A stretch of 64,000 bases of DNA from Selaginella moellendorffii (Eukaryota; Plantae; Lycopodiophyta), in NCBI RefSeq assembly GCF_000143415.4, contig NW_003314292.1, positions 381,178 through 445,177 of the forward strand, in the 5' to 3' direction. Positions within the stretch are counted from its first letter, which is position 1. Every line of letters begins with the position of its first letter. Below are positions 10,001 to 51,939 of the stretch, piece after piece. A program made the translations under genes and the position numbers. The notes under the pieces were generated by a model, which searched no databases, was not told the origin of the DNA, and saw only the letters and a program-made list of their open reading frames with translations.

Positions 10001-10479
10001 AGGGGAACTAAAGAAGGTAACCTTAGAAGAGTATCACGACGGACATCTTGTGGGACACGGCAAAGTGCCCAAGATGATGGGCTTACTCAAAAGGAAGTAT
10101 CACTGGCCAAATATGGCTAAGGACATCCAAGACTATGTAAAAACATGTCCAACATGTCAGCAGGTTAAAGCCGTGACTAAGGCTAGTGGGGGCTTGTTAC
10201 AAAGCATCCCCATTCTAGATCATCCGTGGAAATGTCTTACGATGGACTTCATTATGAGACTAGGGGTTTGATGCGATATTTGTGGTGGTGGACCGATTTT
10301 CAAAGATGGTGCATTTCATACCCACCACAATGGAAGTAGATGCGGAAAGTGTGGCAAAGTTCTTCGAACAAGTGGTTCGAGTGCAAGGAAGGCTAGAAGA
10401 AATTATCTCAGACCGAGATAAGATCTTTACCAGTAGGTTCTAGAGAACTCTCCTAGAATACTATCGCACCAAGTTGAAG
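7012..10479 (+). pseudogene. Ty3/Gypsy gag-pol of a second family (probably element B), truncated in the integrase core
   Basis: LKQTGTIQEYV gag, CFNYGEAGHFSKEC knuckle, ILIDTGA protease, HKIEL/CIDY..LNK RT (YxDD region deleted ~9200), VETDASD RNase H, HHCC and MDFI/SDRD integrase; stops and frameshifts. Confidence 0.9.
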
Positions 10480-10500
10480 CTCTATTTCGTTAAAGTGGGA
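10477..10500 (+). repeat. 24-bp terminal motif, copy 1 (AAGCTCTATTTCGTTAAAGTGGGA)
   Basis: Identical to 20648-20671; located exactly at the Gypsy breakpoint. Confidence 0.9.
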
Positions 10501-11268
10501 TTTATTCAGTAAAATGGGACTAGGTACAAATTTTCAAGTATTTGAAAATGACGTGAAATTATATGTTTTTTGTCCAGGGGCTAGACATATCTGGGGCATG
10601 GTGACTAGCGCGGTGACTTTGTGTCCAGACTGAGTCCATCTGGTTGTATAATAAATCTCATTGTCAAGGTGAACAAGCCGAATCTGAAGCTAAAGAAGAG
10701 TGATGGCATGCGCGCACACACTATTTGTTTGTTCATTGAGTGCGTGGTGAGCTTTCCAAGATGAACGTCATTCCTATTAGCCAGACATATAACTTAATGG
10801 TGAGAACATTTAGATATTATTCAATGTTATCTTTTTCTAACGAATCTAATTGTGAAGGTGTAGCAAGAGGCATTGCTAGTCTGGAGAAGTCATTTAACTC
10901 ATTTGACCCTTAGTGTATTTTCATGAAACTAAATAACATTCATATTATTAAGGAATTTCTCTAGTACCTTTTTTTTACGACATAGAGGCTTGCATTTCTT
11001 TCAAAGGTGATTTAGTAAAAGGCCTGAGGGCACATGCCATTCTATTTCTCAGACCGGTATTAAGATATACTAGTGCAAAGGGAAAAAGGTATTTGGTGAT
11101 CAAGTAAATGGCATGAGGGCACACGCCATTATAAGCCTAAGCACTAGTGGACACCTCCTTTTTGGTGTCACGCCTCACGCCATCACGCCATGCCATCACG
11201 CCTCCTCTGATTCAGATTCGGATTGTTCACCTTGAAATAAAATACATTAGAAACTTAGTAAAGGAATA

Positions 11269-14200
11269 TTAATGAATCTCACCTTGAACCCGGGTTATGA
11301 ATGCTCTTGCTGCATCTCTTGCATGGTCTGGCAAGGTGATGGTGGCACTCTGCTTCCGCATCCAACCATGCACGACATTATCCACCGATATGCTCATGCT
11401 GGGATCCCTTGGATTCAGCACCCATCTCTTTTCTAGGCAATCCTTCGTATATCCGAAACTTGGCTTGAACCACTCCACAATTACATTGAAGGAGTTAGTT
11501 TCCACGTCCTCCTCTACATCAGTGATGCAGCGCCCCACCCATATCATTTGTTTTTTATTACTGGGTCTGACAAGCACGACCATTCCTTTGCAGACCTGTA
11601 CTGGATTGAATGCTGAATCCGGCTTCTTGTTCCTCGGCCCACAATAGTGATCCTCAACATTGTTATCTGTCACTGCATTTCCAGAGGACATTGTTCCGCT
11701 ACTATCTGGTGCTCTGGGTTCTGGCCAAAAGGACTCTTCCAATTCTTCATATACAACCGGCCCATTTTGGATAGCAGATATAATCTTCTCCCAGTATTCG
11801 AGCAAAGGCTTGCACCTCTTAAAATAGGATTCTCCACCAAACACCAACCCCCTCTTCCAGAAGGCAATATGCTGTCTAATCCCGGCCACTATACTTTCCT
11901 GGTCTTTGAGTCCATCCGGGTGCATCGGCCGTGGGGAACCCTGAGGAATCATAGGTTCCCCAGTTATGGGATCTCTCTTGAAGAGTTCAATGCCGTCCAC
12001 TGGCAGCCACAGTGTGTCCCATTCTCTCATCTTGTACCTCATCACTGGAGCACCGTCACGCATGCTGAAATGAAATTGAAGAGGCTTGGAGTGACCAATC
12101 AGCGTTTCGGATCCGTCCCTGATGTAGCCTCTTACAAACCCTTTAAAGTCTGGAACCTCTATCACAAGTGCAGCTTCAACAGTGCCTTTGATGCAATTTT
12201 GGAATTCATCGTAGAGTTGTGGGAGGGTGAGGACATTGGATCGCCGGAGGGACTTTGCCAGGTGACTGAACATGGCATCGACGTCTTCATGAGTGTGCCC
12301 AACCATGAGAAAGTCAAGTGTAACTGTTTCAAATATGCCTTTGGCAACAAGCATCGCCAAGTACGCGAAGACGTACATGTTTTTGTTCTCACTGCCAGCA
12401 TTGTCTGTTTGGAGCAGAAGATAGGGTGGAAGGCCACATCGGCCGCAAGAACTTCCTTGAGATTCTGCTTCGTTTGGATGAGGCTGTGCATTCACCGGGC
12501 GACCAACCTCGTCGGAATGGCATGAGGCCTCACGTGATAACCCTACAATCTGACGGCCAACATATTCACTGGGATGGCATGGGGCCCCACGCGATACTGC
12601 AAGCCTTTGCTCCTCTTCCAGCTGAACCCTGTATCGACAAGGGCCTTATGCAAGGGTTGGCCGTTCAGCTCAGTCTGCGCACTTTGCAGAGACCTTAAAT
12701 GTTTTGCTAGGGATGCAATCATGTTTGCACCCCCGCCACCCCATAGAGGTACAAAGAAGTTCCCATAGTTCTGGGCACCATGCCCATGAGCGATTATGCC
12801 AAACAGAGACACAGGCAGCTGCATGGATGAAGAGATTGCCTTGGGGGCAGGATTGAGTCGAGGTAAGCACGTCTTTTTCTGGTCCATTTTGTCGTGGATG
12901 ATGCAGAGGTAAGAGTCAGGTCTCTCCATGGAGAGAATCTTGTTATGATAATATGCAGTCCTGCAGCTTCTCTGCTCGATGTTGTGGTCGAGCCGCCTTC
13001 TAACCAACGTCTCTCGCTCTTGAGTGCTGCAAGAATTCTTCGACAAAGCCATTTTGATAGCAGTGCACTCGTCACATTTTGAAAAGCTGGAGTACTTTCC
13101 TATACTCACATCCCTGAACCTGTTGCTCCACAATCTACTAAATCTAGATTGGCTCAGCTTCCTGTAGCCATTACTCTGGAGTTCCCGATTCACATCTTCC
13201 AATATGGCCCCCTTAGTATACATGGAAGGGAGAACTCGTTGGGTGTCTTGTGTTCCATCTTCCAAGAGGTGGGTTTTATGTGGTTGCTACTCGCTACATG
13301 TCTCAACAAACCTCTTGAAGATTGCCTCTCCATATACAACATGACCCCTGGTTTTGTGTGTACCGTCGTTCCCATGGACTGCCTGTTGAACCCTTTGTTC
13401 CTCGAACTCAGTTTTGATTCTGTAGAATGTGGTTCGAGGGACTCCATAAATGATTCTCCATGCCTTCATGCAGACCAAACCCCTCTGGAAGACCATGCCC
13501 CCCACCTGATGTTCTGAAGCATCAACAGATGACCGTAATGCCTCATACACAAAATTGCGAGTTGCCTTTCAGGACAATGTCTTGTATCTTGCTCTCTCCT
13601 CTTCAATAGCATCCCAATCAGCATGTTGACAGCACCTCCTCTTGCAACAAGCAACTGTCGAGACCATTCGAACCTCCATCGCTATTTTCTGCCTTTTCTG
13701 TTCGTTGCTCAGATCCCTTTGGCTGCGCTTTAGGAAGGTGTACTTTCTTTTCCCATGAAGAGATGTTCTGTCATCAGTTGTAGTGGTGTTTGATTGTGAA
13801 TCCTTCACATTCTCAAACACTAAATGCCTCAATTTCCACTGCACAATGCTTCCAATAGTCAGACTGTTTTCTTCTGTGTCAACAACCTCTAAAATCGCAA
13901 CTCCAATATCATCCCAGCCCAATTCTTGATTAGCAACCGCATCTCTTGGATCGACAACTGTGGCTAAGCCCTCAGCTACCACCTCCCCCTCGGTGAGGTT
14001 AGGTTTTGCATTTTGCTTCGTACTTGCGCTCGCATCGCGCTCCCACTCGCGATCACGCTCACATTCGCGCTCATCTACCTTCCATACAGGTTTCTCGTGT
14101 GCATCGGCGTCCACTAGCGCTTGCATCACACTCGCGCTTGCATCGCGCTCGTGTGCATTGGTGTCCACTTCAAGACACACCCAGTTTGTAACTTCGCCGC

Positions 14201-14444
14201 CAACTCCGCCGCCCACTCCGCCACCCACACGCAGCCCACTTGGCGTCCCGGGAGATTTCAGCGCCACTCTCCAACTGTAAGTGGCAAAGTAAGCCTTGCT
14301 GCTACGATCCGCTGCACACACAGTGCACATTCGCCAGCGAGTCCGGTTGTCACGCCTCCATTCGGCTTCAAATGGTAAGTCTTTTAGGCCCAGTAGAAAA
14401 TGGCATGAGGCCACATACCATTCAGTAGCAACATTGGCATGCAC
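11269..14444 (-). pseudogene. Sola-like / DUF7869-type DDD transposase (~1,000 aa), disrupted
   Basis: ORFs 13569-14444, 13287-13550 and 12543-13265 are one frame broken by TGA (13569) and TAG (13287); frameshift ~12630 into 11269-12495. Motifs CCKRRCC, VCMKAW..IYGV, FSKCDEC, IIHDKMDQ, LQTDNAGSENKN, FLMVGHTHEDVD; start codon uncertain. Confidence 0.8.
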
Positions 14445-16047
14445 CGATTGGGCTCTCGAGTGCAGTCTGGTTACAGATGGCGTGTAGCCTCACGCCATCT
14501 TAGGATGCAGCCTCAAGACATCTGATGCAGTGGTGAATGGCGTGTGGCCTCACGTTATTTCCAGCTGCTAGCTTTTCATCTGTCAGCTCTAATTGTTGTG
14601 CATTTCTGAATAGGCGAGGAATTGCATTCTTCTTCCAGCCACTGTCAATGTGGATGCAGAGAAGGGGGAGGAGCTCACCAGTTGGACTTTCGGGATGGAA
14701 GGCGAGGATCTGAGGCTGTACAACACAGATGGTGGGAGAAAAGAATGCATAGGGATCCTCATCCAAGTGACAGACACTCCATGCAGTTCCATGCAAGAAT
14801 ATGGACTGGCACTTGTGGTAGAGACAGCATTTGCTTTCAAGATCCACCTTGCACATCCTAGCGGCTTCCCGGAGGGGGGCAGCGGCTATGAGGAATTCCT
14901 AGAGGGAGCTAGGGAGAGGTTGTCCAGGAGGCCCACAATTTCAAAGACACTGCGGGTCTATGAAGATCACATGGAATCCACGGACCTCACCTACGGCGAT
15001 ATTCAAAAACTATATTCCAACATTGAGCCGTTGAGAGTGCCTCCAGTTCGCGAAGCGAAGGGGAAGGGGGTCGATCTGGAAACTACCCTGAAGCAGAAAA
15101 GGGTGGTCAAGCTCAATCCGACGTCCGACTCTCCTCCAAAAAAGAAGCTACTCGGTGATGCCATTGCCTCGGGTTCGAACACTACACCCACCAAAAAGAA
15201 GAGCCGTAAAGAGCAGAAAGAGCAAGAAGAGGCAGCAAAAATCGTCGCAGATAATAGTACTTGTTATTATTCCAACAAAGTATATACAATCGACGTGAGC
15301 CGTATCGACATCCAAAGCAAATACAACCACAGGCTAGTATCTGATGAGTGGGTGGAGAAACTGAAGCAGAAGATGCTGGCAAGTCCAGTAACACCCGACA
15401 TCGCAGACGTGATCCCCTACTACCGAACAATGAAGGGCGAGACGAGGTTTCCAGACTTGATCAATAGGAAGGTGTTGGACGATCAGAACATCTGGTTCTA
15501 TGCCGTCTCCGGGCAGCATTTTAGCTTGGCGATGCAAGAGATAGTTGTGGATATTATGGTGGGCGAGGAGGTGAAGAAAGTCTTCAAGACAAGAGTTGTC
15601 CGCCTGATAAAGGCAACTCGCCCCTTCGATCTATCCTATACATCTCCCACACGCAGAATGTCAAGCAAGAAACGTGCTACAAATCGGGTCTGCACGAGAC
15701 ATTGGCACGAACACGAAAGCTCTGGGTTCAACTGAAGAAGCCACAAAAACCAGGACAAGGACGTGCACTAGCAACTAGCGCCTGGCAAGTAAGCCTCATT
15801 GCATGTGGCATAGCATGTGGCCTCACGCCATTTCCATTGCAGGAATTCTCAAGTCTTCTCTCGAAAACACTGGGGGTCAATGACACACTCAGCATCCATA
15901 ACATTCTACTCGCGACAAAAGTTGTTTTTGACAAATGGGTAGATGTGCTGAGGAGGTACCATGACGGGGAGTTACTAAACTCAATGGGTGTGGAGGATGG
16001 CCGGAAGCCCAATGATTTAAAGCTCAACACCTTGCGTTTCTCGCGGT

Positions 16048-16640
16048 TGTAAGCAACCAAAGGAAACGACTTGAGAGACGATTTATGGGGTTCAAATATA
16101 AAGGGAAAGGGCCCATGAACAAGAGTGCACCCCCTTTTCCAATCGGTTAAGGGTCTTGGGATATTTGGGGTTAAGCGTCCTTGGGTTTGAATAGTACTGG
16201 GCTGGGTGACCTCCCGAGAAGTCCAAACTCAGGAGCTTACATTTGGTATCAGAGAGGTCTTGGGTCCGACTCTGTTGGTTGGCTAAGGGAATCACACCAC
16301 ATGTTGATTGACATCTGGCTGGTCCAGTTTGTTCCCGCTGGGCTCGACCCGAGGGGTAGGGTGTCAAGAGAGCGGGGCTCTCGGGAGAGCTGCGGCTCTC
16401 AGCTTCCGTTCACGAGGGTGTGAACTTGCAGGGAAGCGTGGTGGATTGTAAGCAACCAAAGGGAACGACTTGAGAGACGATCCATGGGGTTCAAATATAA
16501 AGGGAAAGGGCCCATGAACAAGAGTGCACCCCCTTTTCCAATCGGTTAAGGGTCTTGGGATATTTGGGGTTAAGCGTCCTTGGGTTTGAATAGTACTGGG
16601 CTGGGTGACCTCCCGGGAAGTCCAAACTCAGGAGCTTACA
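16048..16640 (+). mobile_element. Complete Cassandra-like TRIM (593 bp)
   Basis: 194-bp LTRs 16048-16241 and 16447-16640 (4 differences), PBS TGGTATCAGAG (tRNA-iMet) 16244-16254, PPT ~16430-16446, TSD GCGGT; removal restores the host reading frame (..LRFSR|SLDDDDLLTVAN..). Confidence 0.95.
16170..16224 (+). ncRNA. 5S rRNA-derived internal promoter segment (A box/IE/C box) in the TRIM LTR; second copy 16569-16623
   Basis: GTTAAGCGTCCTTGGGTTTGAATAGTACTGGGCTGGGTGACCTCCCG(A/G)GAAGTCC aligns without gaps to the 3' half of plant 5S rRNA. Confidence 0.85.
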
Positions 16641-19600
16641 GCGGTCTCTAGACGACGACGACCTTCTGACAGTGGCTAATGCTCTTCTACGTGGTGAGGT
16701 AGTCTTCAACAAGACCAAAATGACTCCCGGCCATATTGTGACATACGAGGACTTGTGCACGACTCTGAGAGCTCATGCGCTATTGAAGGATTGGATCTTC
16801 GAGCAAGTGGCCGTGGAGAGGGTGAGCATCGACACCACGCAAGAGATGATGGAAGCGCTGGATTTGTCAAATGAAGACATCGACGAGTACGTGAAGGGGG
16901 CCCCCAAGTTCATCGATCTGCTGCGGGATGCCACGAAAAGTAAAGCTGAGAAGTTGGATCAGTATCCAAATTTCATTAAGAGTGATGTCGACCGCCGGCT
17001 TCAGAAACAGCTCGACCCCGTAGCAGAGGCCTATCGAGAACCTTACCGGGTATACTTGAATTCGGATGAGGATCAAAGGTGGAGGAGCATCGTTTCCCGC
17101 GGAGATGAGCAGGTCAAGAACATCTTTTGTGTGATGGACTTCACAAACGAGGAGATCACTCATACAGACGAAGTCAGCTCCATCATTGACTTAATGGTGG
17201 GACTTGCGGAGGTGGAATCTTCAGTCCACTATATGATCTACGACTCCGAATCCTATCACAAGTTCTGGAAGGCCTTGAACGAGGTGAAGGCTCGGTTGAA
17301 AGGCAAGGAGATGCGGGAGATCCATGGGATAATGGCTAAGAAGAAGATACCGACGAATGTCCGCATCTTCACACTCGCCCTTGTTATTGGTCCTGCAGTA
17401 GAGTGGGACTGGAGTGACTTCCCAGCTTCGTTCGATAAGGCCAATCGAATTGATCTGAGGGAGGTCAATTTACCCGTGCCTGAGGAACTGAAGACGGATA
17501 TGGAGCTTTCGAATCCAAAGAAAGCTCCAGGTGCAGCATGGGAAATGCTCAGCTGGGTCTTCAACGCAATAGCGGGTGGGTCACCTGCTTCCGACTCCAA
17601 GGGTAAATGCGTTGTCGAGTACAACTGCGGCGGACTATTCTTTCGAGCCGCACTACTCAAGGGTGTCCCGTGTGTTGCGGTGACAAACTCCATTGAAGAG
17701 GTGACTTCAATGGAGCATATAATTACAGTTGCTAAAGAAAAACAGTATCTTCTCTGCGAACCTGGTAAGTACGCACTTTAAGTTTAAATGTTATCTCACA
17801 AGCTCTGTATGCAGGAGTGTGGCCACCCCCAGATGTTGAAACGGCATTAACAGCTACTGTTGAAGATACCCATGTTGGGCCGAGCTCACAACCTGCACAA
17901 GGTAAGGTCACGTGAGGCCTCACGCCATTTTGATTATAGATCGTTGTGAATATTCAGACACGAGGACTGAAAAGCGCACTGGTGGCGCGTCGAAGAAGGA
18001 CAAACAGACAAGCAATAGGAAAAAAGGAGGTACAAATTATATTTGCAATGGCGTGTGGTCTCATGCCATTCCTTGCAGGAGACACTTCTTCAAAGGCAAA
18101 ACAGGCAAGCACCAGCCAAGCTCAAACTGACAGTGGTCATAAAAAGTGAAAGCACGTTGGACAGTCGTCGGGATCAGAGGCGTTTGATTCGAAAAGGAAG
18201 AAGGGCAACGAAAAGATGATAGGTAATGCCTCGCGGTTATGGCGTGTGTGCTCATGCCATTCATTGCAGATCAAGGGCTGAGTGAAAGCAGGCAGTCACC
18301 ACCTCCTGACTTAGATTCCTATGGCGGACTCCCCTTCCCCAATCTCAATGGAGAGGTACAATAGATGAGGGATGCTTTTCAAGTCAGGGCCACGTTTTTC
18401 TCATCTCATCGTCTTCGAAGGGTGCAAGAACGTGCAGAAACCATGTTAAGACAGTCGGGTGAGGATACGGTCCTAGGTCACGCACTAAAACAGGCTATGG
18501 ATGTCTTGTATTTTGAGATGGAGACTCGGCCAGATGATTTTCCCAAGATGGTCCTAGAAGAACAAGCCATCCAGCCTGAGCAGCCTATGGAAGAAATGCA
18601 GGAGGGGGATGAGGAGCCAGAGAAAGATAATGAGCAGGAAGAGCAGAAGGACGAAGAGGAGGACAAAGAAGAGGAGGACGAAGAAGAGGAGGACGAAGAG
18701 GACTTGGATGGTCCTCACAATGGAGATGATCACAATAACGACGACGACGATGATGACGACGATGGCCAGGCTGAGGTGGCCAAAGAGCAGCGGAAGAAGG
18801 TCATACAAGACAAACCATCAGGTAAATAATAGTACATCCATTCCTAACCTTTTACCATTTCTAACATTGTCCATGTAGGTCGCAGAGCAAATGGTAAGTA
18901 GAGATTATTCAGTTGAATTTACAAACTCTAGCCTTTAGTGTCGAAGAAGGATAGTGCCAAGCAAGGGTCGAAACGTATGTCCAATCCTTCAGAATCAGCA
19001 GTGTGCCCAAGTGATATCGGTCCTAGTTCCTCAATAGCAGTTGATGGTAAATACAGTATAGTCGATTCAATGTGCTAATGAGTTTGTTTTTAGTAGCACG
19101 GGAGGATACCATCTCAATCGAAGGGAGATATTTGGACATGCATATGGATCCGCCAGTGGACTCTACTTGCCTGCAAGAGTCATCAGAGCTGGTGGAGGCT
19201 ACTATCCATATCAACGCCAAGCAAGCTGACCACGCTCCACTTGATGCTGCCCATACCACTGAGTCAATCTTGTCCACGTATCCAACTGACGGTGACCAGG
19301 CGCCATTGGACCCGCATGAGGCCACCCCAGCCACCGAGCCGGTCATATCCTCATTTCCAACAGACTCAATGTGTGCCCAATCGTCTGACTACGCGCCATT
19401 GGAACCTCCCTACACCGCCCCTGCTGCCTGTTCGGTCATGTCCACTTTGCCAACGGAGGCACCAGTTGAAATGGCGTGTGATCACACGCCATCGGAACCA
19501 CCCCATGCCACTATTGAGCCAGTTGTACCAGAGTCTACAGTTGAAATGGCATGTGCCCACACGCCATCGGATGCGATTGACCCCACATTGCAGAGGAGAG

Positions 19601-20647
19601 TATTTCTGCCCTTCACGTTTCCTCGACCAAAACCCTCTCAACGACCATCGGGAGCACCATTCGCTAATATTGTAGATGGTAAAATTGACTTGTACCATTT
19701 TTTATGCTGACGCATTTCATTTCAGAGTCACGGCGAAGGTACTGTATTGTTTTTTATATGAACGGTGTCCTTTTCTCCCATGAGCGTGGCTCGTCCTCGA
19801 ATGTCACTGCACCCTCCAAAGCCTGCGGTCGCAAGTTGGTCAAAAGAGACAGATTCATATTAATCACACGGGAGAAACTGCGGGATCTAATAATGACCAT
19901 GCGACACTTAAAACAGAGGGCCGGGTTCAATTTGCAATTGGGAGTTTGGACATCCATGATGCGCCACAATGCATTAACGTTGCTACAGATGATGCACGAT
20001 CAGACGCGAGTAATATTACCATTTGACTTTCTCCTAACGCAGGAGGATTGCTTGACTATGGTCCATGTGAGGGGTAGCAAGCCCATCTTCGTCAAGCCAG
20101 AGGCTGTAGTGATGAACCGGACTGCTAGGTCAAGTGAAATCCTCATCATCGATGACTCGCCGATTAAAACTACAGCGAACACGCACACATATGCAGTGCA
20201 CCCCATCTCTTGCAGTATGGAAACTAGGGAGAATAAACCGTATGTTCTGGGGGACCTTGCAAAACGGCTTGGAGCGATGGTGATAGAGAACCGGCCAGTC
20301 CAGGAGGTGGCTGCAAAAATCAACCAAATGGCAGATGGAACGGTATATCAGAAGCCATTTGATCGGACAGACACCAGTCATCATTTATGGCATGTATATT
20401 GTCTAGCCAAGCACTATCCACATCTCCATAATCTGCTCAACCGGATGGGTTCTTCGACCACTGAACATGAGCGTGGACGTATTAGAGAAGAGATGGCATT
20501 ACTATTGAGTTTAAATCCTGATAGTGTGGAGAGTGATGAAATTCCAAGATTATTGTATAGGCGTTGGACCCTCCCTAGGTTAGACTGGATTTAAGGTTTG
20601 GCTACACTTCCCGCAGACACAAGTAGCCAAGCACACCAAGCCTCTAA

Positions 20648-20671
20648 AAGCTCTATTTCGTTAAAGTGGGA
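20648..20671 (+). repeat. 24-bp terminal motif, copy 2 (direct orientation), overlapping an AAGTGGGA...TCCCACTT hairpin
   Basis: Identical to 10477-10500; lies 53 bp after the accessory gene stop. Confidence 0.9.
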
Positions 20672-21319
20672 ATTGTCATTATCCCACTTGTAAAATAAGG
20701 TTTCCAAACCTTTATATAGTATATAAATATAACAAAATTCAACTGCATTGAGGCACATGCCATTTTATTTTAAACAAGGAAATGTCTACTCAATCACTTC
20801 TCCTCCCCCTACCACTGCTTCACCTCTCTCTTCTCCTTGTCATCGTCGTCCAATTTCTTTCCATCCTTTTAATATTGGCTCAGTTGCTCCGAGTCTAGGT
20901 GGAGCCCAAGTCCCCATTCAATCTTTACTTTCCCCTTATTAATAAAACAACTTCGTAGACTTCCAATAACATGCTGTAACACTTCTAGTATAATGCAAAT
21001 CCTCTCAAAGAATTGTCTTTTAATATTAATACAATGGCATGGAACCCCATGCCATAATAAGTTACATTTTTAAATAAATACATGCCATCTCAGACTGTTA
21101 TTTTTTGCCGGATTGGGAAAGATTTAGAAATCTGTGGATGAATGGCTAACACTCCGTCCCTTGTGCAATAGGTAGCTGAAACCAAGTAGGACCAAGTAGG
21201 AGCTAGTATGATAAGCAGGAATATTGGCAAGGGAACTTAGCTAAAGCTAAAGCCATGTTGGTTGGATAGACGAGGTAAACTGGCAAATTTGAAAGAAAAA
21301 ATTTGTAAATTACACTATA

Positions 21320-33339: not shown

Positions 33340-33582
33340 TATGGGGCTCTGGGATTTGTGTCTCACACAAAGCTCTCAAGAGAGTTGTGGCTCTTAACTT
33401 CCATTCACAAGGGCGTGAACTTGTAGGGAAGTGTGGTGGATTGTAAGAGAATAATTTGAGAGAGGTAAATAAAAATGCACACTTTTTTTTAATTGGTTAA
33501 GAGTTTTTGAGTACTTGGGGTTAAATGTCCTTGGGTTGGAATAGTACTAGATTGGGTGATTTCCTAAATTCAAGAGCTTACA
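33340..33582 (+). mobile_element. Degenerate Cassandra-like TRIM fragment (internal end, PPT, 3' LTR 33442-33582)
   Basis: Matches 16375-16640 with deletions. Confidence 0.75.
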
Positions 33583-39098: not shown

Positions 39099-40009
39099 AA
39101 ACAATGATTAACCCCAAAGTGATTGATAGTGAAGCTAGTCTACTTGGAAGTAGTAATATTAAAATAATTTTGACTTGGTTCTCAATAGTGGTCCATTATG
39201 CTAAGCTTGAGTTGGTACTTTAGTCTTTGAGAATTTGTCTATTAGGTGTTGGAAAAGGTTATAGCATTCATTTGCTATGACTTCCAACAAGCACTTGGAA
39301 TAGATTGTTGGATGGAAAAGGTGTATAATTAAGGCATTAACATTGCTAATACCTGTGCTAGTGGAAATTACATTATTATGTTGAGTGATAAGGGATTTTT
39401 TTTAGAGCTTGATTTTCCATGTCATTTTTCTTGTTAGTGTTTTGGCTTCACATTGGATCTTGAAGGTGGTTGAAAAAAAGTGTTTGTGCAATATGGATAT
39501 TTGATAATATGGTCCTTGTGATCAAGTATTAGATGATCATTTTATATTTTACATTTTGTGGATGTTGGTGTCAAATGTAAAATATATGGGCATGTTGATT
39601 GATACTTAAGCATTATTGGGTCATAAGAATTTATGCTGAGGTGAACCTATATGAAATTATTATTAGGAAAAAGTTGGTTAAGCCTTAAAAGTTTATAATC
39701 CCAGACTGAGAATTATTCTTTCTTTGGGATGGAAAATTTTTCACAAATTTTCTTAGACTTTTCCAATGGCTTATCTATTATTCATTTTACTTGAAAACCA
39801 TTCCATTTTTGTAATTCAATACAAACTAGTGGAAGGGCTAGAATTGACTTTAGTTGGTTTAGACCTTAGTAGTTAATTTGTATGATGCAACCCGAAAAAG
39901 ATACTAACTTTTGGGGCTAAGGCAATTGAGTTGAATAAAGTTTGGAATTGGTGTAAGAAAGTGGCTATTTAGAAATGTGACTTTTGTGCTTTTCTTCTGT
40001 AAAGTTATG

Positions 40010-40203
40010 TGTAAGCAATCAAAGAGAACGACTTGAGAGACGGTCCATGAGGTTCAAATATAAAAAGAAAGGGCCCATGAATAAGAGTGCACCCCCTTTT
40101 TCAATTGGTTAAGGATTTTGGGATATTTGAGGTTAAGCGTTTTTGGGTGTGAATAGTACTGGGTTGGGTGACCTCTTGGGAAGTCCAAACTCAGGAGCTT
40201 ACA
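40010..40203 (+). mobile_element. Solo LTR of Cassandra-like TRIM (194 bp)
   Basis: TG...CA ends, TSD TTATG (40005-40009/40204-40208), 5S-like segment. Confidence 0.9.
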
Positions 40204-40516
40204 TTATGCTAGGTAACAAGTTGCACCTTAAATTTTGTTAAATTCTATGAGAGTGATCTTGACTTGATTTTGGTAACCTTGCACCTTGGTGTGAGACACA
40301 AAATCCCTAGGCCCCAAAGTGGAGCTGGAAGGGCGCCACATCGTAGTGGCCGAAGCGAGAGCCAAACGAGCGTAACACGTTTGGACCAAAAGCTCCGACT
40401 TGAAAAGTCAAGAGCGGGAGTGGAACTCCCAACGAAGTGCTCGAGGAACGAGCACGAAGCGAGCAAAAGGCGAGGCTCCAAAAAGGGACCCAAAAGGACC
40501 AACACATGACACGTGG

Positions 40517-40910
40517 GAGTGTCCGAGATGGACTCGACTTGGAGTCCGAAGTGGAGTCCGAGATGGACTCGAGTTGGAGTCCGAAGTGGAGTCCGAGATG
40601 GACCAGAGTTGGAGTCCGAAGTGGAGTCCGAGATGGACCCGAGTTGGAGTCCGAGATGGAGTCCGAGGTGGACCCGAGATGGACCCGAAATGGAGTCCGA
40701 GATGGAGTCCGAGATGGACCCGAGATGGAGTCCGAGATGGAGTCCGAAGTCGAGACCGAGACCGGGACCGAGACCGGGACCGAGACCGAGACCGAGATCG
40801 GGACCGAGACCAAGACCGAGGCCGAGGCCGAGACCGAGCCCGAGCCCGAGTCCGAGTCCGAGTCCGAGTCCGAGTCCGAGTCCGAGTCCGAGTCCGAGTC
40901 CGAGTCCGGA
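40517..40910 (+). repeat. Compound minisatellite in the 5' LTR (12-bp GAGTCCGAGATG variants grading into 6-bp GAGACC/GAGTCC)
   Basis: Direct inspection. Confidence 0.95.
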
Positions 40911-43900
40911 GCCTGAGAGGGTGAAAGCCCAAAGCGTTCGTCTCCCAGACCCTGGGGGGTTTGGTGAGCCCCAAAAGTATAGTAGGGGGAGGACTGCAGT
41001 GGAGCCAGTTTGGCCAGGAAAGGCCAATTTGGCCCAGGAAGGCCAGACCCAGTGTTGGGTGATGAGCTGCCCACTGGGAAGTCCAAGACTAGAGTGAACA
41101 CAGACCGACAAGCGGGGTAGCTTGGTGAAGTGTTCAAGAGCCGGCTCTAGTTCCCCCGGGAGATCGACTGGCCGATGCTCCCAGTCCAAGTGTGGGTGGC
41201 ACTACCTACTTGGATACCAAGCGTGGCTCAATGGAACCTCGCTCTAAGCCCATGGCTAGAGCACCTAAAGGCGATAGGTGGGGAGAGTACCTAGGTGGCT
41301 CGCGTAAGGCCACGGTGTTCCGAAATGTTGTCCCAAAGGCCCAGACTGTGGAAAGGAAGAGGAGCAGTCCTCTGGGGTAGTGACCAAGGACACAGTCATG
41401 TGGTGAGGAAGTCCCAGAGGACCGTGGGACTTAGTGGTCGGGCCTGTGGGCCTCGATCCAGTGGCAGTGTTGGCAAACACGGCCAGGGGCAGAAAGGGAC
41501 TTGGTAGGAACTGACAAAGGGACTTTGGGGAAGGCAACTCCCCAGGTCTGTGGGCATCCTAAGGATGCTAAGGAGTGGATCTAGGATGACCACTCGTGGA
41601 CACATGGCCCAGTCTTGGAGAGACGAGGTGGTGATGCAAGTGGTGTTGAACCACTAGTGCAGCAAAGGTGAATGGGCATGGCCTTAGCGTAACGGGCCGA
41701 GATGTCAGTGGTACCTTTGGGTGTCGGTCTCAGGACTGGACACGTGGAGCACTTGGACCAGGTGCAAGTGTGGAGTGGCATGGATGCCATTCTTGGGACT
41801 AGCAAGTCCCAAGTCCTGAATTGGATTGATGGAGGTTGTGAATGAGACTCCTCCAAGTGGTCGGAGGTGTGGTTAAGTGACTAAAGTAGAATGGAAAATT
41901 TAGTCGCTTACAACTTGGTATCGGAGCTGTTCCTTAGTCCGACTTTTATTGGTGCTAAAGTATATCACCACTAGTGTTGGCATTGGAAGGTCTGAGGAGT
42001 GGGCCTATCCTTGAGGAGTAGCAAGTCGGGAAGACATGGCTCTCCATTACAGTTCGTGTGTGAACTTGTAGACGAGGTGGTAGATAGAAAAGGGCCAATA
42101 ATGGAACGACTTTGGGATCTTGGGAACAGTATATGGTTTTCCTCAAAGGAGTTGAGGATGTGATCCAGATGAGCATTTGACTTAGCAAACTGGCTAATGT
42201 AGTTGTGGTAAACAACTACAATTGGGATCACGGGAAAGATAAAGACTCCAAAGCAATAAAGGAGTCACAAGATTTTCCTCATATAGTTGAGGTTGGTGCT
42301 CATGAATGTGAGACCAGAAGTAATGACCGTGGGAGGTCAAATATGGAAGAGGACTCAAGTCCTTGAAAAGGTAGCCGGGGCTACCTCTAATAAATGCTGG
42401 AACAACCCCAGGAGTTGGGGGTGTATTAAGTGGATGAGTTGGTGTTCTCATCACATGGACAAGTAGTCCTAAGGGGCAAAGGTTACCCCTAGAGAACAAA
42501 ATCAAGTGTCGGAGTAACACTTGTGAAAATAGTCCTTTTGAGTAGGACAGGAATGCAAGAAGTGTATTCCAGTGAGCTAGTACCTCACAAGTAGGACCTT
42601 ACGGGTCTATGGATTAACCAAGTCCAAAACTGCTGGATGACTCAAGTAGAGTCAACGGATGGTCCTAAAAGGACTGATGGAAGCATTTGGACTGAGGTGT
42701 GTTGTACCCCATAAAGGATGGGGGGGAATCATAGGATCCAAGGATGAGAACAGAGGGTATCTCATCAATGGCAAAATGTGCCATGCTAAAGTTATAGGAA
42801 AGGTGTTCCCAGAAGAAAACAACTTTGACATAAAGTTGTGTGTGACCTCTATGGTGCAGTGCTAACGGATGGTTGGCATGAGAAAGAGCGGTGTTGGTCT
42901 TGGCAAAGACTTAGACACGAAGGGGAAATGTCATAGAGGTAGGCTCGTGGAGCCAATGGTGTGGAGACACCAAATGTGCCAAGGTGTGATACCTTGAGGC
43001 TATGTTGGTGGGTTCATGAGAACCCCTTGCCAAAGGAATCCCAATGGAAATGGGAATAGCATAGCCTAAGTTGCAGAGCATGCAGTTGGAGTGTGGTGAC
43101 CCAGATAATGATGGAGGTGTGAAAGCACCAAGCAATGAGTTGTAGGACTTGACAACTATAAGGCAACTAAGCAAGAGGTGCAAAATAACTGGTTAAACGG
43201 GTAGAAGGTAGCTACCCAAGACTTCTTAATAGCATAAGGAAGTTGGATATACCCTTACGGGGGATAAGTTGCTTGTGTTGCGATATAGTAAGTCAATGTC
43301 ATAAAAGGAAATACTCATTGTCAAGAAAGCCATCATTGGGACACCCGGACACTCTAGAACACCAGAAGGTGGTGTTTGATGTCGCGAGGGCAATGGATAA
43401 AGCCCAAGGGACTAAGTCCCTAGCGAATGATGGATAGAAGATGCTATCCAAATGTCCAAGGTTGCGGAGACAGGAGAGACTGTCTACCCGAGTTGGACAA
43501 AGCCAAAAATGGAATTTTGGCAAGGCTAGTGATGGGCATGTAAAGGCCCATAAGCAACAATGTAATCCCAGTGTGTGGGATTATAAGGTGAGCATACCCG
43601 GATTGAGGAACCACTCCCTAGGCTATTGGGTAGGTTCATCCCTAAGAATACTTGCTAAAGCGTGATAGAAAGTGCAAAGCTACCCTCCTGGTCTGGAGGA
43701 GAATGACCAAAGGAAAGGTGTGAAGCCAAAAAGCAAGTAGTAAGGGGATAGAACCAAACCATAGGAATCGAAGGGCATAACCAAGGTTGGTTATGCCAGC
43801 TGGGAGTGGAGAATCAAGTGGGGGCTCGAGGGTGTTGCCGCTAGCAACTATGATGCCATGGAGAGTCTAAAATATGGAATTGTCCATGTTAGACTATGTG

Positions 43901-46190
43901 GCATTTTGAAGGCTTGCAAAAAGGGAGGCCTTAGCAAGCTGAGGGACAGAGTTCCTTCAAGGTTCCCAAAGACGATTCTAGGTAGCGTAGTACCTAGAAA
44001 GGCCAAGTGTAAATGGTTCATGGAATGCGCGAAATCAGAGTGGCGCAGCAAAAGCGTGGTCTTGAAGCTTGCCATGAGGCAAGGTTATCAAGGTTAGGGA
44101 AGAAGTTCCCGAGTGTTCAAAGAGAGGGCTTTGAACGAAAGTCGATGGTCAAGGACTTTCACGCTTATGCAGGAACCATGTTACAATGGTCGGAGGACTT
44201 GCCAAGTGAGATTGGCACGTCGGGGGAACAAAGACCCTAGTTGAAGGTGATAACTTCAAAAAGGGTGGGCCATGGGGCCGAGCATGGAGGAGTCCATGCA
44301 TGATCACAGACATGTCAAGTGAGAGGACTTGGCAGTGTGGAGGAACTAGGTTCCTAAGCTGTGATCTGTAGCGCGCTTTAAAAATAGGTTGGTGCACCGG
44401 CGTGGGGAGTCACGCCAGGCATCTTGTGTGATGCCGTCCGTAGATGCATATACGGAGGTTGGGTTCGAGTCCCGACCCTCTAGTGCTTGGGTTCGAGTCC
44501 CAAATCACTAGGGCGTGGTGATGGTTTGGAATATGAGGACACTCATATTTCGGTGGTCATGGACTCTCAGTGGGGAGACTGGTTTGGGCACACCGCCAAG
44601 CGAGGGATGCCTCGGAGTCGTGATGCACGGTTATATTGCTTAGTGTGAAAGCTTGGCATATCTAACTTGAACGCTTTGGTGCAAGTGGCACCAAGGTCGT
44701 GGTGAGTGAGATGGGGACACCTAATCTCAGTTGCTATGAACCCTTGGCCGGAAGGGCTGGCTTGGGCGCACCGCCAAGTGTGGGGGATGCCCCCGGGGTC
44801 GTAGTTAACAAGTTAAAGGTCTGGAAGACCTAGTACCTATTGGCAAACCTGTTAAGGTGCCAAGGTGAGATCACTAGGTGATCTTGTGGCTAAATAAGGA
44901 CAAGGTCCTTGTTTGGGTTAAGGAATAAGGTTCTTAGTTCAAAGTGTTGATTTGAACTATTGATGATGGTGTGGCTTGGTCAAAGTGACCAAGTGGGAAA
45001 AGCACCTTAGGGAAATGAGCTATGTCATTGCGATGGCATAGTGTGTCCAAGGAAAGTAGTCTCTAAAGAGACCCATGAGAGGGTCACGAAGTTGGGCCGT
45101 GGATAGAGCCCATAGCAGAAGATGCTAAAGAGACATACTAGGGGTGAACGTCCTCCGGACTTGGCAAAGAAGAGTCTTTGCTATGGAACCGAAACAATAC
45201 CTCAAGGAGGGAGGTAGAGATTTGATGTTGCTTGGTGCAACAATCAACGGATAGGAGCAAAAGATGAGTGGCCAAGATAGGGCCGTGGAATCCCTTGGAA
45301 GGAATCCAAGTGACAAAGTTAGGCGAAGAACACTAATGTGTTGGACGCTAACAAGTTGCGGGAAAGGAAGTGTGTTTCCAAGGAGGGATTCCGAAATGCT
45401 TCGATTTGGCGAAAGTGGGAGCTCCAAGGGAGGGAGCGGTAAGGTAGCCAAATGATAGGGCCATGAACAGCCCTAGCACAAAGTATGATAACTGGAACTT
45501 TGGCACGAAATAGAAGAGAGGATGATGGTGCCCTCGAGTAGAGAACTTCCTAGGATGGGAAGTGGAGTTGCACAAAAGGTGCAAGGCAAGGTGTCGGAGA
45601 CACCTAAGAAATTGACTCCAAGAAGTCAAAATTCAAAGTTCCAAAGTGCAAAGGTTATATCGATGGAAATTGAGACTACTCGAGAAGGAGTAGTGGGATT
45701 GACTTAGAGAAGGGTCTCTAAGAGGTTTAGCGAGAACTAAACCAATAAAAGGATGAACCATTACATGTGGTCCAATCAGTCTCTAAATTGGAGAGACTAC
45801 GCTCCTTAAAGGATGGACAAGGCATGGTGAGCCTTTGATGTCAAACCATAGACAAAGATTGGCTAGGTGCCAAAGATGGAAATGGTAACACATGTGGGTG
45901 TTACTTTATGAAAGGGTTTACCGTTCGATGAGGACATCGAACTTCGTCTATGGGTGGTGGAGTTGTGAGACACAAAATCCCTAGGCCCCAAAGTGGAGCT
46001 GGAAGGGCGCCACATCGTAGTGGCCGAAGCGAGAGCCAAACGAGCGTAACACGTTTGGACCAAAAGCTCCGACTTGAAAAGTCAAGAGCGGGAGTGGAAC
46101 TCCCAACGAAGTGCTCGAGGAACGAGCACGAAGCGAGCAAAAGGCGAGGCTCCAAAAAGGGACCCAAAAGGACCAACACATGACACGTGG

Positions 46191-46853
46191 GAGTGTCCGA
46201 GATGGACTCGACTTGGAGTCCGAAGTGGAGTCCGAGATGGACTCGAGTTGGAGTCCGAAGTGGAGTCCGAGATGGACCAGAGTTGGAGTCCGAAGTGGAG
46301 TCCGAGATGGACCCGAGTTGGAGTCCGAAGTGGAGTCCGAGATGGACCCGAGATGGAGTCCGAGATGGAGTCCGAAGTGGAGTCCGAGGTGGACCCGAGA
46401 TGGACCCGAGTTGGAGTCCGAAGTGGAGTCCGAGGTGGACCCGAGATGGACCCGAGTTGGAGTCCGAAGTGGAGTCCGAGATGGAGTCCGAGATGGAGTC
46501 CGAGATGGAGTCCGAGTTGGAGTCCGAGGTGGACCCGAGATGGACCCGAGTTGGAGTCCGAAGTGGAGTCCGAGATGGACCCGAGATGGAGTCCGAGATG
46601 GAGTCTGAGGTGGACCCGAGATGGACCCGAAATGGAGTCCGAGATGGAGTCCGAGATGGACCCGAGATGGAGTCCGAGATGGAGTCCGAAGTCGAGACCG
46701 AGACTGGGACCGAGACCGGGACCGAGACCGAGACCGAGATCGGGACCGAGACCGAGACCGAGGCCGAGGCCGAGACCGAGCCCGAGCCCGAGTCCGAGTC
46801 CGAGTCCGAGTCCGAGTCCGAGTCCGAGTCCGAGTCCGAGTCCGAGTCCGGAG
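46191..46853 (+). repeat. Expanded compound minisatellite in the 3' LTR
   Basis: Same units as 40517-40910, ~270 bp longer. Confidence 0.95.
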
Positions 46854-49800
46854 CCTGAGAGGGTGAAAGCCCAAAGCGTTCGTCTCCCAGACCCTGGGGG
46901 GGTTTGGTGAGCCCCAAAAGTATAGTAGGGGGAGGACTGCAGTGGAGCCAGTTTGGCCAGGAAAGGCCAGTTTGGCCCAGGAAGGCCAGACCCAGTGTTG
47001 GGTGATGAGCTGCCCACTGGGAAGTCCAAGACTAGAGTGAACACAGACCGACAAGCGGGGTAGCTTGGTGAAGTGTTCAAGAGCCGGCTCTAGTTCCCCC
47101 GGGAGATCGACTGGCCGATGCTCCCAGTCCAAGTGTGGGTGGCACTACCTACTTGGATACCAAGCGTGGCTCAATGGAACCTCGCTCTAAGCCCATGGCT
47201 AGAGCACCTAAAGGCGATAGGTGGGGAGAGTACCTAGGTGGCTCGCGTAAGGCCACGGTGTTCCGAAATGTTGTCCCAAAGGCCCAGACTGTGGAAAGGA
47301 AGAGGAGCAGTCCTCTGGGGTAGTGACCAAGGACACAGTCATGTGGTGAGGAAGTCCCAGAGGACCGTGGGACTTAGTGGTCGGGCCTGTGGGCCTCGAT
47401 CCAGTGGCAGTGTTGGCAAACACGGCCAGGGGCAGAAAGGGACTTGGTAGGAACTGACAAAGGGACTTTGGGGAAGGCAACTCCCCAGGTCTGTGGGCAT
47501 CCTAAGGATGCTAAGGAGTGGATCTAGGATGACCACTCGTGGACACATGGCCCAGTCTTGGAGAGACGAGGTGGTGATGCAAGTGGTGTTGAACCACTAG
47601 TGCAGCAAAGGTGAATGGGCATGGCTTTAGCGTAACGGGCCGAGATGTCAGTGGTACCTTTGGGTGTCGGTCTCAGGACTGGACACGTGGAGCACTTGGA
47701 CCAGGTGCAAGTGTGGAGTGGCATGGATGCCATTCTTGGGACTAGCAAGTCCCAAGTCCTGAATTGGACTGATGGAGGTTGTGAATGAGACTCCTCCAAG
47801 TGGTCGGAGGTGTGGTTAAGTGACTAAAGTAGAATGGAAAATTTAGTCGCTTACACTTGGTTGAGGATAATGATGTCCAACTTAGTTATTTGAAGTTGAA
47901 ATGTTAAATACTTATACTTGTCTAAGAAAGTTGTGTACCAATATGAGTTCATTGCATGGTCTTCATTTTAGTGGCAATTAACTATTAATCATGCATAGTT
48001 AGCCTCTTTAAGGCATGCTTAGAGTTATTGGTTAAATGTGTTAGTGAGCTTATTGTGGTTCAATTTGATTCGAGTGGTCCTTTAATTCATGTTTGTCCAT
48101 GTTTTTATATCTTATATCTAGGATATTACTCTCATGATGGACAAATATATGACTTGATGACATGAGTTTAGTGTTTGGGTCTTGTGAAAGGCAAGTTGAA
48201 AAGTGATTGTTAGTTGTTTTGCGATTAATGATTGCTTGTAGACTTCGTCGAGGACTATTAACACTTGCTTCACTTGATAATAATTTAGCAATGATAAACT
48301 TGCTTTACCGGATAGTGTTGTGTGGAGGATCATGTTGTTAAACTTATATGGTTCTCTATTTTGGCATATCGATTCTACCTCTATCAATATCATTTAGTTA
48401 CGTTTAGTTTATAGAGTTAAATTACATTGAGTTTTAGATGTGGTGATTCACTCTTTGATAATATTTTATCTATATGATTAGTCTTGGGTACTGATTAAGG
48501 TATCTTTGACTTTGGATAACTTAGTTGCTAAAAAGCTTTAAATGGTGATTCATTTTGCTTTCTTCTAGCTTTATTTTGGTGTTGATAGCATTGAGATGAT
48601 GCTTTGTTGTTAACATTGTTAATGTTGAAATTTAAGTGAAATGAGATGTCTCTACATAGGATTGATATTGAATTTAAATAGTCTTGATGCAAATAATATT
48701 GATAATTTAGCTGTAGCTTTGTGTTATTGGCATTTGTGCATTCGCTAGTTAACAACTATACTAGCATTTAAATAAATTGAAAGACAAGTTGAGTTAGTTA
48801 TGTTCTGGATAAGATTGTTTAGTACTTTAACTTTTCCTTGAAAAGTGATTCAATCATAGACTATACTAACTTTATAAGAGGAAGAGTTAGTGATCGATAT
48901 TAAAATGTTTGAATATTTATTGGATTTATGTATGATTTATGTATTAAAATGTATGAATATTTATATCGATCATTGATGATTCTTTTTATGCTTGTTATGA
49001 AGTGAGTTACATCTTACTATAAAAGATGGATTTATGGAGGATCGATTTGGTGGTCACTTGTTAACTATAACTTTATTATGTTTGGCTTTTAGATTGATGC
49101 AGAAATGCTCTTCATTAGCTTTGCATTATGAAGTTTAGTTTATAAATGTGTTGAATGGTTATTGTGGGTTGTACCATGATTTCTTCTTTAGCATTAAAGT
49201 TAGTTCATATGAAACTCATGATCATTGTTAAGCGGATGGTGAATTCTATGTTTTCCAACTATAGTGATTTTAGTGGTTTCGATACTCTAATATTAGTTTA
49301 TCAAATGATAACTTACTTAGAATACTTTTGTGTTTTAATCTAAGATTTATTCACTAATACTTAAGTCTCTAAAATATCATTGTCTTTAACTTTGATATTG
49401 TCTATCTCTTGATCTTTGGGTTTTGGCTAATACAGGCAAACTTGCTTTGGCACTTTGTATATATGGTGAAATCTTTAGTCATGGGGTAACTACTGTCGAC
49501 TAATCATATCACCTGCTTCTCTCTTGATATTCCTTATTTTGTTTAAAAAAGATATGACTGTGTAAACAACTCTAACTACCTCTAAACCTATGAGGGTTAA
49601 GGCCTCTAGCTTCTCTCTTTATACCACTTGCAGATAAAGGCTATCATCTTTTATAAGTTAGGTGACACCTAGAGTAGCAAGGGTGGTTAACTCCAGTAGT
49701 CATTTCCTTGTTAGTGATGACCGAAAGGTGTATGAGTGTAGCATATTTGCATTAGATAGAGAAATTACCCTAACTCATTTGGTTCATTTCTCACAAAGTG

Positions 49801-50715: not shown

Positions 50716-50992
50716 ACGAAAGTTCCCAATAGTAGTAAGTGTAAGCCAACATATGAGTTTCTCATACTAGGCCTAATATACTTAGAAAGAAATATATAAG
50801 AGTTCCTGTTTATCTAGCATAAATACATATATGATGATTGATTTCTCAACTAGCTTGGATGGAGATTGATATAAAGTTCAACAATACCAACCTCCTATTG
50901 TCGTGGCAATAAGGAATGAATATTTGAAATAACTCGTTAACATGTTATTTTCAATACCCACAGTTATATTTACTATATGGATATGAGACCCC

Positions 50993-51402
50993 TCTAATAC
51001 CAAATGTAAGCTCCTGAATTTAAATTTCCCAGAAGGTCATCTAACTGAATACTACTCCCATAGACACTTAATCCCAAATATCCCAAGACCTTTAACCAAT
51101 TGGAAAAAGGGGTGCATACTTATTTATGGGCTTTTTTCTTTTATATTTGAATTTTTGTTTTTTAAGTTATTCTCTTTTATTTCTTATATGCACCATATGT
51201 TGAGATTAACATCTGGTAGGTCTAGTTCTAGGTCAATGGGGCTCTTGGGAAAGCTTCCATTCATAAGGGTATAAATTTGCAAGGAAGCGTGTAATGGATT
51301 GTAAGCAATCAAAGAGAACGACTCAATAAATGATTCATAAAGATTTAAATATAAAAGGAAAGAGCTTATTAATAAGAATGTATCCATTTTTTCAATCAGT
51401 TA
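50993..51402. mobile_element. Two degenerate Cassandra-like TRIM fragments (minus LTR 51005-51188 with PBS; plus PPT + partial LTR from 51300)
   Basis: Homology to 16048-16640. Confidence 0.7.
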
Positions 51403-51939
51403 AAGGAGTAATAACAAAGTTCTCTAGAAAGAATTGAGCATTATAACCCATAGTAAGCCTAGATAAAAATGGTTTAGCACTTTATCATTATCCATCCCAT
51501 GATTCATTACTTGTAAGATTATTATAACCAATATCCATTGAAATGACTCTTGATTGCATGATGTGAATACAAGCAATAAAATCATACTTTGTTATAAATC
51601 ATTTTTTGAAGAAAAAAAGATGATTTATATATTTGATCCTTTATTTTTGATACCTTAAGTTGCTAATATACCTCACTCATAAGCCCAAGCACAAACTCAT
51701 GTAAATGGTACATCATAAATTCATTATATAAACGCAAACAAAAGCTCATACAATATAGTATAAAATTGTAGAAACCAAAATCTATACCTAGGAACACATG
51801 TAAAACCATAACACCTAAATATATACCCACTTGGATCATCATTTCCATCTCTATATATGCAATGAAACTAGTTATCCAATCTTATTAGATAATACTAGCT
51901 AAAATATATCTTCTAATACCAAATGTAACACATATAAAT

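Follow-up and report, generated by a model that had tools for sequence, protein, structure and literature searches.

A Selaginella moellendorffii transposon with a predicted ParB-like and FCP1-like accessory protein encoded opposite its DUF7869 transposase

In a 64,000-nt stretch of the Selaginella moellendorffii genome (contig NW_003314292.1, positions 381,178 to 445,177; hereafter the window) we identified a DNA transposon with terminal inverted repeats (TIRs) in which a DUF7869 transposase and a large accessory gene form a divergent, head-to-head pair. The accessory gene is predicted to be spliced into a single protein of 1,620 amino acids (aa), and its sequence suggests that this protein is probably a land-plant, phosphatase-fused and probably non-catalytic variant of the ParB/methyltransferase accessory kind described in algae. 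As a tentative reading, we propose that it is a non-catalytic regulator or anti-silencing scaffold that would bind a 22-bp palindrome dispersed through the element. Coordinates are collected in Table 1.

The existence of such a gene had been proposed in a sequence-only reading of the window, according to which nine GT-AG introns of 38-57 nt, together with the removal of a terminal-repeat retrotransposon in miniature (TRIM), give one frame interrupted by one frameshift and two stops (18147 and 18362). Rebuilding the gene by script reproduced this frame and the three remaining lesions, the frameshift lying near 15608, with intron 1 in phase 0 and introns 2-9, as had been stated, all in phase 1. 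The gene end placed at 20594 did not hold, being a product of an inversion at 20569-21109, and the last eight codons of that model are replaced in the family form; the latter likewise ends after 1,620 aa, in line with the proposed length.

Comparison with other copies allowed us to separate the lesions of the examined copy from the features of the family. The stretch or part of it was present in 20 of 24 listed public runs from three studies. In the DNA run X1, with 62,436 contigs aligned on 10400-21300 and depth expressed as summed contig depth, which gives no copy number, position 18147 is a C in 654,033 of 667,691 (98%) and position 18363 a G in 603,365 of 603,365 (100%). Run X4, which holds only 3 million letters of contigs, yet covers all 30 bins of 17730-19780, has the same two letters, and run X18 also has the G. 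A stop conserved at 18147 or 18362 would mean two genes; the other copies have sense codons instead, for Arg at 18147 and for Trp at 18363. An extra base behind 15608 has weaker support, occurring in one X18 contig and 14 X1 contigs (137,590 of 292,552 depth), and eight X1 contigs join across the TRIM site, representing TRIM-free copies. The frameshift, both stops and the TRIM belong to the examined copy, and substituting the family letters gives 1,620 uninterrupted codons. For 17730-19780, 34 substitutions are listed, which leave every GT and AG of introns 2-9 intact, and a single indel, which lies inside intron 7. Divergence between copies is about 1.4%, with 28 changes in 2,051 nt relative to X4, and stems mainly from post-insertion decay; the family is likely to be high-copy. 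The accessory gene is as evenly covered as the transposase in X1 and diverges from it, which upholds the view that it is transposon-encoded. In one X1 contig, telomere-type plant repeats replace 14747-14836.

The splice model was examined with several controls. Introns have a GC content of 39% versus 50% in exons and are AT- and T-richer, and the chosen donors account for eight of the 13 GTAA words in the gene span. Retaining any of introns 2-9 stops the frame; intron 1 is unneeded for an open frame, which survives its retention. After shuffling of introns 2-9, the last exon could still be reached in an open frame in 0 of 200 trials when the splice scores of the real sites were required, in 9 of 200 at looser scores and in 181 of 200 at the loosest, with thresholds chosen after the sites had been seen. 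A frame-blind scan returned 10 introns in sense and two in antisense, compared to 5.5+-2.5 in shuffles, a modest enrichment, and seven of the 10 sense introns share their donor with the model. The seven linker exons (15-585 nt) are every one a multiple of 3. The frame stays open with 480 different intron sets, and the position of several acceptors may therefore shift by a few bases; intron 2, whose donor scores highest, is contained in all 480. None of the runs listed as containing the stretch is given as RNA. Contigs from three runs, guessed to be RNA and possibly DNA, cross the introns without splice joints, which is uninformative either way. We conclude that the gene model is real, and splicing into one protein is predicted with good confidence.

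The second feature on which our proposal builds is the palindrome. A search with the pattern, which was derived from the examined sequence itself, gave 18 matches in the window, 17 of them inside the element, with 0.72 expected. Four sites lie near the left end, two in the transposase frame, three between the genes and two near the right end; within the accessory gene, introns 1, 3, 4 and 5 contain four copies and the coding proline/threonine (P/T) repeats two. Palindromes are found even within coding repeats of both genes. Introns and the space between genes are the same kinds of place in which VANC21 motifs occur in VANDAL21, as described in the available part of PMC5735166.

The element measures about 9.95 kb between its TIRs after the 541-bp inversion is undone. 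Loose contig ends behind 20568 (n=7) and 21109 (n=6) each match the opposite breakpoint reversed, and therefore we assign the inversion to the examined copy; inside the inverted segment lie the genuine 3' terminus of the gene and the right element end, together with some 80 bp of flanking DNA. At the element flanks we see no target-site duplication, and since these are unrelated repeats the insertion site has probably been rearranged. An internal inverted repeat of 47-62 bp pairs 10649-10710 with 11189-11249 and links the predicted last transposase exon to the left subterminal region. The TRIM in the accessory gene is 593 bp long, and its long terminal repeats (LTRs) match the Rfam 5S ribosomal RNA (rRNA) model with E 5e-4 and 8e-4, below the gathering score. 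We take it to be Cassandra-like, presuming that this family is defined by the features present here, namely short LTRs with 5S rRNA sequence, a 5-bp duplication and no open reading frame (ORF). Further copies or remnants of 5S-rRNA-bearing TRIM LTRs lie at 1785-1980, 33372-33564, 40009-40205 and 50986-51406.

The transposase of the examined copy carries three stops and a frameshift near 12630, has a candidate 52-nt last intron at 11231-11282 and a start codon that is unfixed, and is 33-41% identical to the eight closest of 80 metagenome loci. A literature search for DUF7869 returned no mention in any paper. One or two TNP1/EN/SPM-like (Transposase_23) domains begin the transposases of the window (13600-14000, minus strand) and of loci L001-L006, L008 and L020, and a profile of this N-terminal repeat matches the window transposase with E 4.8e-9; judged from sequence, the domain is a link to CACTA regulators. 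That the N-terminus of the accessory protein is a copy of this domain was rejected in sequence comparison. EnSpm/CACTA elements have CAC-type termini as their hallmark, and the TIR here begins GCTCT or AAGCT; this superfamily, Plavaka included, was set aside by the ends, and Transposase_21 (PF02992) found no match. The DNAG-ENKN and GHTHE words of the transposase are presumably Sola-like, and TIRs, a criterion for Sola elements, are present at 25-27 bp once the inversion is allowed for; of the 4-bp target-site duplication expected in that superfamily none is visible. The element is tentatively Sola-like by its motifs and, by its ends, not CACTA. Sola elements are treated in the accessible portions of PMC5751038, PMC4455052, PMC3985635 and PMC12973397.

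No homologue of the accessory gene was found in the 80 transposase loci, most of which are too short to contain one. Distant DUF7869 loci have upstream accessory genes of their own (L044:3303-8086, L066:616-7353, also L067, L078:146-4378 and L061:908-2203); a protein of about 1,240 aa is common to L044, L066 and L078, and an ORF with words resembling C5-cytosine methyltransferases was recognised by eye in L044, L061 and L066, while Pfam gave no match for the accessory genes of L044, L061, L066 and L078. Between the window protein and the large accessory proteins of the marine loci L044, L066 and L078 no test was significant, and two in-order stretches align by eye. In L028 (578-4008, minus strand) divergent ORFs precede the transposase, of which one matches SET weakly (E 0.065), and an ORF after the transposase match contains a Tudor domain.

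The sequence-only reading had also ordered the protein into ParB-like, methyltransferase-like and FCP1-like modules; these names are only partly backed, fairly for FCP1, moderately for ParB and weakly for the methyltransferase. A HAD fold at the C-terminus is very probable; the sub-threshold PF03031 match spans about 110 aa with HAD-like motifs in order and the IDDSP motif kept. Judged by eye, motif I lies ahead of the stretch aligned by Pfam and reads FYMNG in place of DxDx(T/V). Its Tyr at 19755-19757 occupies the position of the nucleophile Asp, and four runs list no alternative letter at this codon. In the N-terminal half a ParB-type fold seems probable. The ESM Atlas hits of this segment are unnamed clusters, DUF3723 clusters (31% of members) and ParB_N clusters (11%); the PHROG ParB-like match has E 0.17, and a phage ParB-methyltransferase profile, built from 61 of 113 extracted ORFs with lengths of 370-520 aa, gave glocal z 1.5-2.1, local z 1.1 and hhalign 0.5%. 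The frameshift near 15608 falls in this segment of the examined copy, where in the word SGQHF (15508-15522) a Phe replaces the conserved Arg of the ParB G-x-H-R word in the phage consensus.

A methyltransferase-type fold in the middle of the protein is the weakest of the domain calls and somewhat doubtful. In the ESM Atlas this alpha/beta segment matches unnamed clusters (0.91) and an N6_N4_Mtase cluster (0.87) at a recognition value of 2167, which lies below the guide value of 2300, and its strand-helix order fits beta-class enzymes by eye. The catalytic word [DNS]PP[YFW] is absent from aa 565-805 of the examined copy, family letters there being only partly covered, the word resembling an S-adenosylmethionine (SAM)-binding motif is degenerate, and no methyltransferase match was obtained from Pfam (PF01555 included), NCBIfam, PHROG or PADLOC. 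The earlier claim of such a module fails to gain from four profile tests, none of which beats shuffles. If the folds are right, catalysis is likely to have been lost in the ParB-like, methyltransferase-like and FCP1-like parts.

Green-algal cases are reportedly documented in Iyer 2011. As related in the available part of PMC12477816, the Ectocarpus element Sola1-1_Ec32 carries a gene for a 1,104-aa ParB-like and N4C/N6A-methyltransferase protein opposite its transposase, and such proteins are called a possible new class there, with self-binding and self-modification proposed. The element described here is likewise a TIR DNA transposon with a second gene on the strand opposite the transposase, and its protein has ParB-like and N4C/N6A-methyltransferase-like parts as sequence-level candidates. 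It differs in its land-plant host, in the length of the protein (1,620 versus 1,104 aa) and of the TIRs (25-27 versus 282 bp), in the added acidic linker and FCP1-like domain, in the element-wide palindrome and in a putative methyltransferase without catalytic words. In the red alga Bostrychia, the accessible text of bioRxiv 10.1101/2025.02.11.637652 describes PAG2 as methylase plus SET and PAG3 as ParB-like plus 2-oxoglutarate (2OG) oxygenase, beside inverted-repeat arrays. These Plavaka (EnSpm/CACTA) elements have, as far as that text goes, a ParB-like accessory beside inverted repeats, an N6-methylase accessory and a very high copy number, points in which ours would resemble them; they have two genes and tandem arrays, whereas here we find one gene, dispersed palindromes and another transposase family. 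The comparison with the Ectocarpus and red-algal proteins is by description.

The Arabidopsis VANC proteins offer another comparison. According to the part of PMC5735166 available, VANC21 binds motifs in the introns, intergenic and terminal DNA of VANDAL21, and the available VANC descriptions share with our case a second gene in a plant DNA transposon, a variable exon-intron structure, peptide repeats and an element motif. By the same descriptions, VANC itself has DUF1985/DUF287, a non-palindromic 9-mer and Mutator-like elements, unlike the gene here; neither DUF1985 nor DUF287 gave a Pfam match in the accessory protein, which is not a VANC. In phages and some algae, ParB-linked methylases are mentioned in the available part of PMC4738411, the phage loci being of the ParB-terminase type. 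Phage fusions of ParB with N6/N4-methyltransferases have the same order, ParB-like followed by methyltransferase-like, if our domain calls are right, but show no significant sequence match and lack the roughly 250 extra helical residues that separate the two parts here. Compared to FCP1/NIF-family HAD phosphatases (PF03031), motif I is without the nucleophile Asp and the domain is fused to a transposon protein. Among the literature matches listed, including the best 20 of 196, we found no land-plant ParB/methyltransferase transposon case and no FCP1-like fusion, though supplements could hold one; ParB is absent from the accessible portions of a Marchantia N4-methylcytosine (4mC) preprint and of PMC6431247.

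On this background, we suggest that the accessory protein may be a scaffold which would attach to the 22-bp palindromes of its element and keep the element active. Loading would occur through the ParB-like and helical half, at palindromes located in introns, at the element ends and between the two promoters. The dead methyltransferase would mask or sense its target bases, and histones or phosphorylated RNA polymerase II would be held in place by the acidic linker and the pseudo-phosphatase. In this way the scaffold would keep the divergent promoters open and lower host silencing. By analogy, the protein perhaps works like the accessory proteins proposed in algae, and perhaps like VANC. As support for a palindrome-binding regulator or anti-silencing scaffold we count the lesions private to the examined copy, the 0 of 200 shuffle result, the even depth, the confinement of the palindromes to the element, the ParB-like hits, the NIF match and the algal precedents; we consider it possible, at a little less than even confidence. 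A stronger version, which we think rather unlikely, would make it a third land-plant transposon anti-silencing system besides VANC and TnpA, in which a bacterial-type ParB clamp on parS-like palindromes all through its element, with a dead methyltransferase and a dead phosphatase of the RNA polymerase C-terminal domain (CTD), would shield the DNA and hold the transcription machinery.

Several observations weigh against the scaffold proposal. The 24 C-to-T-type changes of the examined copy (14 in CG, 6 in CHG and 4 in CHH context) show the pattern expected of a methylated, silenced copy, and because 20 of 24 fall in CG or CHG any protection was not lasting. No DNA-binding helix-turn-helix was detected in the accessory protein, and no homologue of any of its segments was found in the searches made: HMMER with the 374-aa methyltransferase-like exon against 1.84 billion representatives gave 0 matches at E 0.001, a word-based search with the same exon among longer and near-length proteins, a search of the ParB-like region against longer proteins, and searches of viral contigs, PDB sequences and, with the last exon, prokaryote genomes found no homologue, and tblastn against phages returned noise only (E 0.7-10). 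Single-sequence models reached a predicted local distance difference test (pLDDT) of 34 for the methyltransferase-like and 33 for the ParB-like segment, both unusable, and a structure search with the former was uninformative, its best Z of 5.8 being to unrelated alpha/beta proteins and no such methyltransferase being among the matches listed. Against the phage profile the methyltransferase-like segment does not score above shuffles (local z -0.9, glocal z -0.4 and -0.6), and hhalign remained below 1%, though its register matches the alignment by eye. Finally, the close transposase relatives L001, L003 and L004 show no visible second gene in the sequenced stretch and carry family-specific palindromes of their own, which differ from the window's 22-mer, repeated upstream of the transposase (L001:50-310, L003:627-1578, L004:518-1726); the transposase may for this reason be the palindrome binder.

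This last point leads to the main alternative, in which the palindromes serve the transposase as binding sites and the big protein assists transposition, in synapsis, reinsertion or target choice, similar to MURB or the structural role of TnpA. Besides the palindromes near the ends of relatives showing no second gene, the TNP1-like N-terminal domain of the transposase fits this view, as does the report, in the accessible part of bioRxiv 10.64898/2026.08.24.746577, that transposases can bind their own elements and, alone, activate their own copies. Six palindromes of the accessory gene, four intronic and two in coding repeats, lie far from the ends and weigh against it, and we regard it as unlikely.

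Could the gene instead give a ParB/methyltransferase-like protein of ~811 aa that stops within intron 2, the FCP1-like part being made as a second product, separately or more rarely? With intron 2 retained, the frame would close at aa 812, shortly after the methyltransferase-like segment, leaving the domain pair reported for Sola1-1_Ec32, and the splice pattern of the linker is not unique. The family has no conserved stop or promoter gap, however, and the donor rank of intron 2, its presence in every open-frame set and the eight phase-1 introns with frame-neutral exons all speak for one product, making the two-product reading quite improbable. The shorter form may occur beside the full-length protein or in its place. 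We give still less credence to a captured chimera, useless to the element and carried along in one recent burst. Copies so similar could owe their open frame to one master copy, and no homologue was found elsewhere, but a frame of 1,620 codons with nine introns, in which both introns and coding repeats contain the palindrome of the element, suggests that the gene has long resided there. An active N4C/N6A methyltransferase in the middle of the protein, which would mark the DNA of the element itself as its algal counterparts have been proposed to do, is very improbable, since the algal precedents and the weak language-model match to the N6_N4_Mtase cluster are opposed by the missing catalytic word, the degenerate SAM-binding-like word and the lack of a PF01555 match here, whereas InterPro found PF01555 in PAG2, as reported in the available red-algal text.

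Table 1. Coordinates of the element, its genes and neighbouring features in the window.
Feature	Position	Strand	Basis or remark
22-bp palindrome ATGGCRTG-N6-CAYGCCAT, 17 copies	10703..21055		pattern search, <=3 mismatches
Left terminal inverted repeat, ~25-27 bp	10477..10503	+	26/27 nt identical with 20648-20674
Right terminal inverted repeat	20648..20674	+	direct-repeat orientation here solely through the inversion
541-bp inversion, specific to examined copy	20569..21109		reversed contig ends at both breakpoints
DDE-type transposase (DUF7869; N-terminal TNP1-like domain)	11196..14489	-	Pfam PF25273, E 9.8e-40
Accessory gene, 10 predicted exons, 1,620 aa in family form	14695..20568	+	script rebuild, splice controls
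Introns 1-3	15789-15842, 17765-17814, 17902-17939	+	GT..AG, donors start GTA
Introns 4-6	18030-18078, 18223-18269, 18822-18878	+	GT..AG, donors start GTA
Introns 7-9	18894-18938, 19047-19093, 19679-19725	+	GT..AG, donors start GTA
ParB/Srx-like segment	15244..15730	+	ESM Atlas feature scores 0.92-0.96, recognition 2852
TRIM insertion with 5S-rRNA-derived LTRs, specific to examined copy	16048..16640	+	LTRs 98% alike
Alpha/beta segment, possibly degenerate N4C/N6A-methyltransferase fold	17032..17763	+	ESM Atlas
Linker: eight phase-1 introns, seven exons	17765..19725	+	K/S-rich, D/E-rich and P/T-rich tracts
FCP1/NIF-like HAD domain	19726..20330	+	Pfam PF03031, E 7.2e-4, 19.7 bits vs cut-off 21.8
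Frameshifted aspartic protease (TAXi)	53000-54410	-	
GH17-X8 glucanase	56540-58250	+	
STOP/IDD-type zinc finger	61444-62682	-	

Outside the element, the window contains genes of host type, and the GH17-X8, STOP/IDD-type zinc finger and aspartic protease genes nearby indicate a land-plant host. A near-identical block of about 1 kb occurs twice, at 40290-41253 and 45964-47196, 5.7-5.9 kb apart and with tandem units of 12 and 35 nt; the pair probably represents the LTRs of a young retroelement.

The element combines a clear candidate site, present 17 times, with a family frame that is intact and with numerous endogenous targets of near-identical sequence; we believe that this makes it a useful system in which self-binding and self-protection become directly testable. 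The algal precedents are recent, and self-binding was proposed there. If a ParB-clamp system did operate in this family, it would help to explain the very high copy number of a single family, and if such proteins do bind and protect their own elements, they would represent a sequence-specific chromatin tool of new build.

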